A stretch of 64,000 nt of DNA, from IMG/VR virus record IMGVR_UViG_3300029305_003178, positions 64,001-128,000 of that record. One strand, given 5' to 3'. Positions 48,902 to 50,206 of the stretch are shown in pieces. The stretch's first letter is position 1. Each line of letters opens with the position of its first letter. Position numbers and translations under genes: made by a program. The stretch comes from a virus. Lineage: Duplodnaviria; Caudoviricetes. Below the pieces are notes generated by a model. That model was given only the letters and a program-made list of their open reading frames with translations, was not told the origin of the DNA and searched no databases.

Positions 48902-50206
48902 TGATAATTAAAACATTTAGAATCATTGAAATTTTGCAATTATGTGATTCATTACTATATGGTGATATTTTTGTTTGTCTTGATTCATTAACCGCCTTTG
49001 AAATTATTCTTTGACAGGATTAAACATTAACGCTCGATGAAATATTTAAAAGCGTTGATTCATTACTCTATTCTGAAATTATTAGCTGTATTGATTCATT
49101 GTCTACCTATGACATTATTTTAGCAATTGATTCGTTGCGGTTCACTGAACTAATGAATGGTTTTGACTCATTTGTGACTCATGAAATAATTATGTATTAT
49201 GGTTCATTTTTGCAATTTGAAATTATGAATGGCGTTGATTCATTTAATTTTTATGAAATTATGATAATTAGTGATTCAGTCATACCATTTGAGATATTGA
49301 AGCATTTGATTCAATTGAGCAACATGATAGTTTTTTTTTAGATGATTCTTTTAATCGCATTGATATTGTAGTGTGTGATGAATCGTTTTAGAATAATGAA
49401 ATTATCTGTCTTCATGACCCATTAATTCGCTTTGATATTTTGGCATACGATGATTCATTCAAAGTTCCTGAAATAATGGAACGAATTGATTCATTATCCG
49501 AAAATGATATAATTATGTCTGGTGATTTCACATTCAATATCCGTGAAATTAAATTCCTCTGTGATTCGTTTTTTAGCTTTGAAATTATAGACTTCTGTGA
49601 CTAATTTGTTTTAATTACAGACTTTGTTTTTGGTTATGCGTTTAGATTTTACATTAGTGAAGGGTGAAATATTCTATTACTCTGATTCATTTGTTCCCAT
49701 TGATATCATGATATCCCATGATTTGATTGTCTATTATTCGTATATGATATTGTGGCATACGATGATTCTTTTGATCAATATGACATTTTATCTCCATGTG
49801 AATTAATTGTATCATATGATACATTTCCATGTCGTGAAATAGTAGTTACTCCTGATTCACTAAGTGTCACTGAGATAATTATGTACGATGGTTCATTTCT
49901 ATTCGATGAGAATGTACAGCTATATGATTCATTTTGGCATTGTGAAATAGTTCGAAACCGTGATTCGATTTTAATCATTTTCGCCTTGTGAAATCGTACA
50001 ACTCGTTGATTAAACTTTATTCATTCTTCTATAATGATGATTGTGCTGCTGCGTGATTCACTTATCACCCCTGAAATAATCGCCTATGATGGTTTATTAC
50101 TTGTCATCGAAAATATACTTTCTACCGATTCATTCGCACTCTATGAAATATTCAGGTGCCATGATTCATTTTTCGATAATGAAATAATAGCTTCTATTGA
50201 TTAAAT
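48902..50206 (-). repeat. Dual-repeat 36-nt array 2 (TIGR-like), about 35 units, inverted relative to array 1
   Basis: Plus strand reads TGATTCATT-N9-TGAAATTAT-N9; repeat A at 49056, 49092, 49128, 49164, 49200, 49236, 49272 (exact 36-nt steps). Confidence 0.9.

Follow-up and report, generated by a model that had tools for sequence, protein, structure and literature searches.

The repeat array at 48902-50215 of this phage DNA (array 2) is probably a dual-repeat TIGR array that is read by the single TasA protein of the phage, with the extra nucleotides found in some of its repeats tolerated as linkers between successive guides. The window analyzed here, 64,000 nt in all, comprises bases 64,001-128,000 of a 227,229-bp virus record from a gut jumbo phage (29% G+C); positions refer to the window unless the genome is named. 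The system is of a known kind, and its irregularity is modest and previously undescribed; the observation is real and non-random.

Array 2 has the architecture of a dual-repeat TIGR array

The unit listing and an HMM parse place ∼35 units of 36 nt in array 2, which is assigned to the minus strand. For the parse, a cyclic profile-HMM was trained on the three arrays of this phage (array 2 and arrays 1 and 3, described below), all three were parsed with it, and the segment lengths were tabulated. In the plus-strand reading, each unit consists of repeat A (TGATTCATT), 9 nt, repeat B (TGAAATTAT, TGAWATWAT), and a further 9 nt. When array 2 was analyzed in this way, the spacers were 9 nt long in 68/68 cases (34/34 after A and 34/34 after B), A was 9 nt in 27/34 units, B was 9 nt in 30/34, and the unit was exactly 36 nt in 27/34. 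A motif search for exact copies of the A 9-mer placed 10/10 of those with the sense of array 2 inside array 2 and 9/11 of those with the opposite sense inside array 1.

Both repeats open with T-G-A in the plus-strand reading, the equivalent of UCA at the 3′ end in the RNA sense. These bases were conserved in 85-100% of the 36-nt units of array 2 and in 12/12 of those of array 1, they were retained in 30/35 A repeats of array 2, and each repeat also has an invariant base at its opposite end. Three A repeats of array 2 have TGG instead, which in the RNA sense is CCA, the canonical box C elsewhere in TIGR systems. Spacer G+C in the three arrays is 31-40%, compared with 29% for the genome.

Published TIGR arrays start and end with truncated edge repeats (Faure 2025, PMC12045711). 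Because half an A was found by the HMM parse at both ends of all three phage arrays, we assign A as the edge repeat and B as the loop repeat. With this assignment, array 2 has the two alternating repeats of 8-12 nt, the ∼9-nt spacers, and the 36-nt unit of a dual-repeat array, a box C/box D motif shared by both repeats and placed beside the spacers, and a truncated edge at both ends with a terminator downstream. It departs from the fixed unit length and 4-5-nt gap between box D and box C used by TIGRFinder, since six internal edges have gaps of 7-14 nt and the array also contains one dead unit and one half unit.

A CRISPR array (a 25-36-nt repeat with spacers of similar size) was considered and rejected, as there are two 9-nt repeats and 9-nt spacers here and no Rfam family matched.

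The phage encodes one Tas protein with a Y/H dyad

The 227-kb record contains one tas gene (genome 201,560-202,822, minus strand, 420 aa), which adjoins array 3; it is present in the genome yet lies ∼87 kb from array 2 rather than next to it. A Pfam search with the protein gave no match at 0.01, and a direct search of the PDB matched the solved TasH and TasR proteins at ∼1e-6. When a profile was built from the phage TasA and 26 homologues, the matches improved to 8.8e-31 for TasR (9mty) and 1e-19 for TasH. In the profile alignment, phage Y399/H406 fall on the catalytic Y289/H296 of SpTasH (family pattern P-Y...G-H), and H406 is invariant in 27 homologues. SpTasH is from Salicola phage CGphi29 (PDB 9W03; PMC13421893); the phage TasA aligns with its Nop domain and with Y289/H296 and differs from it by having no HNH domain.

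In SpTasH, Y289/H296 cleave the precursor at a single phosphate within the edge repeat, and unprocessed termini are reported to impair TasH activity (PMC13421893). The Y/H dyad was found in dual-repeat systems only, and it has been argued that the cut site reaches the dyad because the length is fixed at 36 nt (Xu 2026, bioRxiv 10.64898/2026.09.09.750476). TasA proteins are RNA-guided DNA binders that act as transcriptional repressors. The initial annotation had preferred a protein-measured guide RNA to neutral satellite DNA or helically phased binding sites; a Tas protein with a Y/H dyad encoded in the same genome and the dual-repeat TIGR architecture bear this preference out. When 65 guides were compared with the phage genome in both possible arrangements of an 18-bp target, matches with ≤3 mismatches were no more common than for reversed controls.

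Array 2 is very probably read from the minus strand

Homologous arrays lie directly downstream of tas on the same strand, with edges GAGCGAGCCA or GAATGAATCA and loops GAGAGAACCA or GATAGAAACA; in phage G005, an array with an edge identical to that of array 2 starts 75 nt after tas. Because these arrays are co-oriented with tas, repeat A of this phage should read AAUGAAUCA in the RNA, with both repeats ending in UCA where others have CCA. Across the homologous arrays, box C is found as CCA, GCA, and TCA. The likely RNA sense of array 2 is thus the minus strand, with edge AAUGAAUCA and loop AUAAUWUCA.

Strong terminators lie directly downstream of arrays 2 and 3 in the tas sense, and array 1 has none. 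The one beside array 2 is a bidirectional intrinsic terminator (48851-48892) with an 18-pair stem on the minus strand, ∼10 nt past the last edge of the array. A plus-strand reading of arrays 2 and 3 would leave only 12-30 nt between the terminator and the first repeat. From these features, the RNA of array 2 very probably corresponds to the minus strand, the reverse complement of the reading used in the initial annotation. Upstream of array 2 in the tas sense, ∼300 nt (50216-50512) contain no long ORF; this region, in which the array promoter would be expected, holds a terminator-like hairpin at 50468-50505 that would serve the neighboring gene, a second hairpin at ∼50335-50365, and an ORF of 24 codons whose end abuts the array. 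A scan for promoter consensus sequences gave 71 matches when 66 were expected, which is uninformative in AT-rich DNA.

Insertions in array 2 lie at one junction of the edge repeat

The seven lengthened A repeats reported initially were all confirmed against the raw sequence, and all were assigned to the minus strand. Three edges are 3 nt longer than usual: ggattaaacatt at 49017-49028 (GGATT[aaa]CATT, with the TGA that forms box C in the RNA sense changed to GGA), tgatttcacatt at 49523-49534 (TGATT[tca]CATT), and agattttacatt at 49644-49655 (AGATT[tta]CATT, with TGA changed to AGA), the last of which adjoins the dead unit. The edge tgatttgattgtctatt at 49719-49735 is 8 nt longer (TGATT[tgattgtc]TATT) and contains a tandem copy of TGATT. 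Two further edges are each 10 nt longer: tgattcgattttaatcatt at 49961-49979 (TGATT[cgattttaat]CATT) and tgattaaactttattcatt at 50007-50025 (TGATT[aaactttatt]CATT). Both are tandem edge-edge dimers with the copies 1 nt apart, and in both the upstream copy in the RNA sense has UAA for UCA. The seventh, tgataattaaaacatt at 48902-48917 (TGAT[aattaaa]ACATT, +7), has the sequence and coordinate originally given, and it is better read as a terminal truncated edge than as a lengthened repeat, being the last element of the array beside the terminator at 48857-48886; in the RNA sense, it is 3′-truncated and consists of AAUG, unrelated bases, and then the terminator.

In the HMM parse, every listed insertion lies between TGATT and CATT, with both repeat ends kept and the next TGA exactly 9 nt away, as had been described. 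Array 3 adds one case, TGATT[atca]CATT, at genome position 200703. When indels were tabulated over the aligned units, insertions of ≥3 nt were concentrated in A instead of being spread evenly: 7 of the 9 internal insertions of this size fall in A, although A makes up a quarter of the unit (P = 1.3e-3), and the chance of all seven A insertions lying at one junction is ∼3e-7. Two B repeats of array 2 (those of the units at 49272 and 50007) carry 1-nt indels. Within array 2, the edge junction is the sole place where the array can stretch. The position of the insertions and the constant spacers support the proposal of constraint on the repeat ends and on spacer length, with the middle of A left free. 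The accompanying claim that spacers stay 9 nt holds for array 2 only; in array 1, 11/58 spacers are 8 or 10 nt.

It had also been noted that TGATT and AATCA in the 49961 repeat can pair. They can do so on paper, but the hairpin has a predicted energy of only -0.6 to -0.8 kcal/mol, which 6-20% of shuffles of the insert equal or beat; the remaining inserts form no hairpins (fold energy 0). A stem-loop TIGR array, which would have palindromic stems of ≥5 bp and a Tas protein without the Y/H loop, was rejected as a candidate, since only the 49961 insert can make 5 pairs, which are A-U-rich, and the dyad is present. Because the inserts form no meaningful hairpins, array 2 is not a stem-loop array.

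Half-edges of neighboring repeats covary

In TIGR-Tas systems, the half-edges at the 5′ and 3′ ends of one guide originate in separate edge repeats; they form a pair that is bound by one Tas protomer. In the plus-strand reading of the three phage arrays, base 7 of edge i was Watson-Crick complementary to base 4 of edge i+1 in 75/77 units, and 20 of these 75 pairs were other than A:T (15 T:A and 5 G:C). The control comparison of bases 7 and 4 within the same edge gave 42/80, and the observed covariation was reached by 0/20000 shuffles of edge order. Array 2 alone gave 33/34, and its single miss vanishes if the 9-mer at 49799 is counted as an edge. The covariation was replicated in two other phages, G004 and G008 (31/36 and 23/29). 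This cross-unit covariation provides a strong confirmation, from sequence alone, of the guide structure in these phages.

The insertion site, between bases 5 and 6 of A (AAUG^AAUCA in the RNA sense), falls between the two covarying bases and so between the half-edges of neighboring guides. Since the site separates these two bases, an insertion parts halves that work in different guides, and each half stays beside its own spacer. Of the two roles first suggested for the middle of A, an expandable loop or a processing junction, A being the edge and the covariation of its halves across units favor the junction over the loop.

Based on these observations, array 2 would most likely be transcribed from the minus strand and read by the TasA encoded ∼87 kb away. 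In each edge (AAUG|AAUCA), the first half would form the 3′ end of one 36-nt guide and the second half the 5′ end of the next, with repeat B serving as the loop that joins the two 9-nt spacers within a guide. After maturation, the half-edges at the two ends of a guide, derived from two edge repeats, would pair on one TasA protomer. Such a guide would need both half-edges, each at a set distance from its own spacer, but it would not need the edge to be continuous. Cleavage of the precursor is expected in the middle of the edge, as by the Tas Y/H dyad in dual-repeat systems. Because the cut would lie mid-edge and the halves belong to different guides, an insertion at AAUG^AAUCA would only lengthen the linker between guides and should be nearly neutral, whereas insertions in the spacers, the box motifs, or the loop would alter the geometry of the guide and would be removed by selection. 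The inserts probably arose when the internally repetitive edge slipped or was duplicated imprecisely, as in the TGATT-TGATT at 49719 and in the dimers at 49961 and 50007. Neutrality may be incomplete: since the fixed 36-nt length is argued to position the cut, and TasH is impaired by unprocessed ends, the guides next to long edges may be handicapped or poorly matured.

Irregular units and signs of decay in array 2

Array 2 contains two irregular units, both assigned to the minus strand. The dead unit (49598-49643), which is in the middle of the array, consists of an A-like TGACTAATT followed by 37 nt without a recognizable loop repeat, ∼10 nt too long, and a lengthened edge comes directly after it. 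A comparable pair, a dead unit plus a +5 edge, was seen in G005 (198078-198029). The half unit (49799-49816, 18 nt) consists of TGAATTAAT and one 9-nt spacer. Covariation with both neighbors says that TGAATTAAT at 49799 acts as an edge, T7 of 49763 pairing with A4 of 49799 and A7 of 49799 with T4 of 49817, which makes an edge-spacer-edge unit with one spacer and no loop.

These units bear on the unlikely alternative that array 2 is a decaying, remote array. In that case, the long edges would be lesions that inactivate or split the array, and their position would reflect a slippage hot spot in AATG-AATC-A, not selection on the rest of the unit. Array 2 does contain an excess of long internal edges (6/34, compared with 1/45 in arrays 1 and 3 together and 3/409 in homologues), as well as the dead unit and the half unit. 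It lies 87 kb from tasA, and TGA is mutated in two of the long edges. The inserts at 49719, 49961, and 50007 resemble duplications of parts of the edge, and a homologous locus, L121, shows clean GAAT/GAAC slippage. Neutral decay should, however, alter the lengths of spacers and loops too, yet 68/68 spacers and 30/34 B repeats are 9 nt, and a hot spot alone leaves the absence of indels elsewhere unexplained. The T-G-A box bases are also conserved (30/35 edges), and covariation across units is intact (33/34). Because spacer and loop lengths are untouched and covariation is intact, plain decay is disfavored relative to tolerated linkers between guides.

A model in which the edge center is purely neutral does not account for the irregularity of array 2, which far exceeds that of arrays 1 and 3 and of the homologues. 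TGA is changed in 2 of the 3 edges with +3 insertions (GGA at 49017 and AGA at 49644), and one of these adjoins the dead unit. The mutated TGA and the adjacent dead unit suggest that some of the long-edge sites may represent decay rather than tolerated variation, and array 2 may be partly decaying.

Long edges are rare in homologous arrays

An automated survey of 84 Tas loci was noisy, and many of its parses overran the array ends, so that 29 clean arrays with 409 inner units were kept; arrays with >3 insertions were left out, which may hide other irregular arrays. Most of the edge-center insertions flagged in the survey were terminal truncated edges, and the terminal truncated edges of homologous arrays keep exactly one half (AATCA at the start, GAGCG at the end), as expected if the two halves serve different guides. 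Four inner insertions of ≥3 nt were found in the 29 arrays, three of them in the edge. The loci with inner edge insertions were L150, L157, and L165, plus L121, which is outside the 29-array set and shows plain GAAT slippage. Long internal edges were therefore present in 3/409 homologous units compared with 6/34 in array 2 (Fisher, 9e-6).

The insertions at L157:4429 and L150:4222 are edge-edge dimers within otherwise regular arrays, and in L157 the upstream copy has TTA for TCA. Sites of this kind raise the quite improbable alternative that the long edges are scars of array building or rearrangement, with blocks of units joined or inserted at edge centers, edge-edge dimers left behind, and the redundant box C then lost. 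The two 19-nt edges at 49961 and 50007 would fit, each being two copies 1 nt apart with an upstream UAA for UCA; L157:4429 has the same form, L150:4222 is an intact dimer, TGATT occurs twice at 49719, and the mechanism of array expansion has been called unknown (Faure 2025, PMC12045711). Only about five such sites exist, however, the +3 and +4 inserts do not resemble edge copies, and no duplication of flanking spacers was seen at the sites apart from a weak similarity between the units at 49925 and 49961. Scars would in any case be compatible with the linker explanation, not opposed to it. For the dimers themselves (49961, 50007, L157:4429, and L150:4222), it is a rather unlikely possibility that they are footprints of TIGR array growth or recombination at the edge center, with the duplicated edge later trimmed; if so, they would be the first sequence-level clue to array expansion, an enigma to the field.

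In another homologous array, L185 (G005:203867-204560), the pattern is the opposite of that in array 2: insertions of 1-4 nt lie in the loop repeat (TGATAC[..]TAT), and the edges are constant. This counts to some extent against the linker explanation. It seems that only the stretch of a repeat from box D to box C can change length and that which repeat does so varies by phage.

Two other jumbo phages, G004 (210 kb) and G005 (320 kb), encode Tas proteins 39-45% identical to that of this phage and have the same edge repeat and likewise scattered arrays. G004 has a 36-unit array ∼110 kb from tas (L183, G004:8700-10800), and G005 has three arrays (L184-L186; 197400-198500, 203500-204900, and 266600-267400).

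No close relatives were found when the region was compared with public phage records by megablast, and an exact-pattern scan of IMG/VR for the same repeats, with the record of the window and its near relatives left out, gave single chance matches only. Four phage loci (L010-L013) contain the neighboring 528-aa gene (60% identical). In L012, the one of these loci inspected, there is no array at the equivalent place, and no Tas was found in the three searchable records of this group, which are incomplete and thus uninformative on this point.

Comparison of array 2 with known guide systems

The closest known systems are the dual-repeat TIGR-TasA systems (FpTasA of Flavonifractor plautii and MbTasA; PMC12045711; bioRxiv 10.64898/2026.09.09.750476). 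These have in common with array 2 and its TasA the 36-nt unit of edge, 9-nt spacer, loop, and 9-nt spacer, a spacer-adjacent motif shared by both repeats, half-edge ends, a terminator, a Tas protein with the Y/H dyad and without a nuclease domain, and edge halves that pair across the guide with covariation. Array 2 differs in being ∼87 kb from tas, in having ∼35 units instead of the usual 5 to 15, in having UCA instead of CCA as box C, and in its six internal edges of 12-19 nt instead of 9; the phage TasA, at 420 aa, differs in its long N-terminal extension. Because the published finder requires a 4-5-nt gap, it would not bridge the long edges of array 2, and array finders with this requirement will split such arrays.

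Stem-loop TIGR arrays (PlTasA, PateTasR, and CsTasR; Faure 2025, Xu 2026) also have variable sequence or linkers at the position of the edge repeat while keeping the box motifs and 9-nt spacers. Array 2 differs from these in that its inserts do not fold and the phage TasA has the Y/H dyad. There is also a likeness to clustered (polycistronic) box C/D snoRNAs, where a single transcript yields several guides, each with two short guide segments, and where the linkers separating the units can vary freely (see the discussion of Faure 2025). The snoRNAs are far longer, have K-turns, bind L7Ae, Nop5, and fibrillarin, and direct the methylation of RNA.

The first description of TIGR-Tas systems dates from 2025, and array 2 provides natural variants at the maturation site, with edges of 12, 13, 17, and 19 nt in an otherwise strict array and in the presence of a dyad-bearing TasA. 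These long edges bear on whether a guide complex trims its two ends itself or shares a single cut in each edge with its neighbor. For engineering, the data suggest that the edge center is a place where sequence can be added between guides.

Arrays 1 and 3 share the repeats of array 2

Array 1 (43710-44757, plus strand) has ∼30 units with the same repeats and is inverted relative to array 2; its RNA sense would be the plus strand, as for the flanking genes. It contains no lengthened A. With its margins (43696-44776), it fills the entire gap between two plus-strand genes with no terminator on either side. Because array 1 has no terminator and lies inside an operon, in the tas sense it would be cut out of messenger RNA. 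Array 3 (genome 200,559-201,113, L009:4559-5113) is outside the window and adjoins the tas gene.

The placement of arrays 1 and 2, which are inverted and flank an operon near a strand switch and a turn in GC skew, and the recurrence of 9-mers every 18 bp could suggest iterons or centromere-like sites, bound as DNA by a phage protein at 18-bp spacing. We consider this extremely improbable because the same repeats lie beside a Tas gene, homologous arrays are co-oriented with tas, covariation between same-strand bases separated by 33 nt points to RNA and not to a binding site, and insertions of 3-10 bp would destroy helical phasing.

The arrays also have few stops in one frame of the 36-nt units (for array 2, 1 in 240 codons), the motif is weakest at positions 4, 7, 10, 22, 25, and 28, which are third codon positions of that frame, and three inserts are 3 nt long. 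On the very improbable view that these features reflect a degenerate 12-residue coding repeat (D-S-F/L-x-x-x-E-I-I-x-x-x), the 3-nt inserts would be codons. However, this frame would put the T at unit positions 1 and 19 in the wobble position; this base is retained in 19/20 units of array 2 and 12/12 of array 1, although the two bases before it are not conserved. Only 4 codons per unit can be stops, and in the 128 free codons of both arrays there were 7 when ∼7.6 were expected (a hand estimate from spacer base composition). The frame is broken at least 5 times, no ORF exceeds 80 aa, the remaining inserts measure 4, 7, 8, and 10 nt, and the repeat would run antisense to the operon that contains array 1. 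The pattern is accounted for by a Tas protein and covariation of the RNA type, as in the guide array reading.

In arrays 1 and 3, the edges strictly alternate between TGATTCTTT and TGAATCATT, which gives a 72-nt super-period, and G-bearing edges (TGATTCGTT) are always followed by TGACTCATT. Both the strict TGATTCTTT/TGAATCATT alternation and the TGATTCGTT-to-TGACTCATT order are explained by the compensatory pairing of the half-edges of each guide. Array 1 also contains near-duplicate guides (44388-44568 and 44496-44712), in which the unit at 44532 resembles that at 44388 and the unit at 44496 resembles that at 44677, which indicates that parts of the array were copied in blocks of two or more units.
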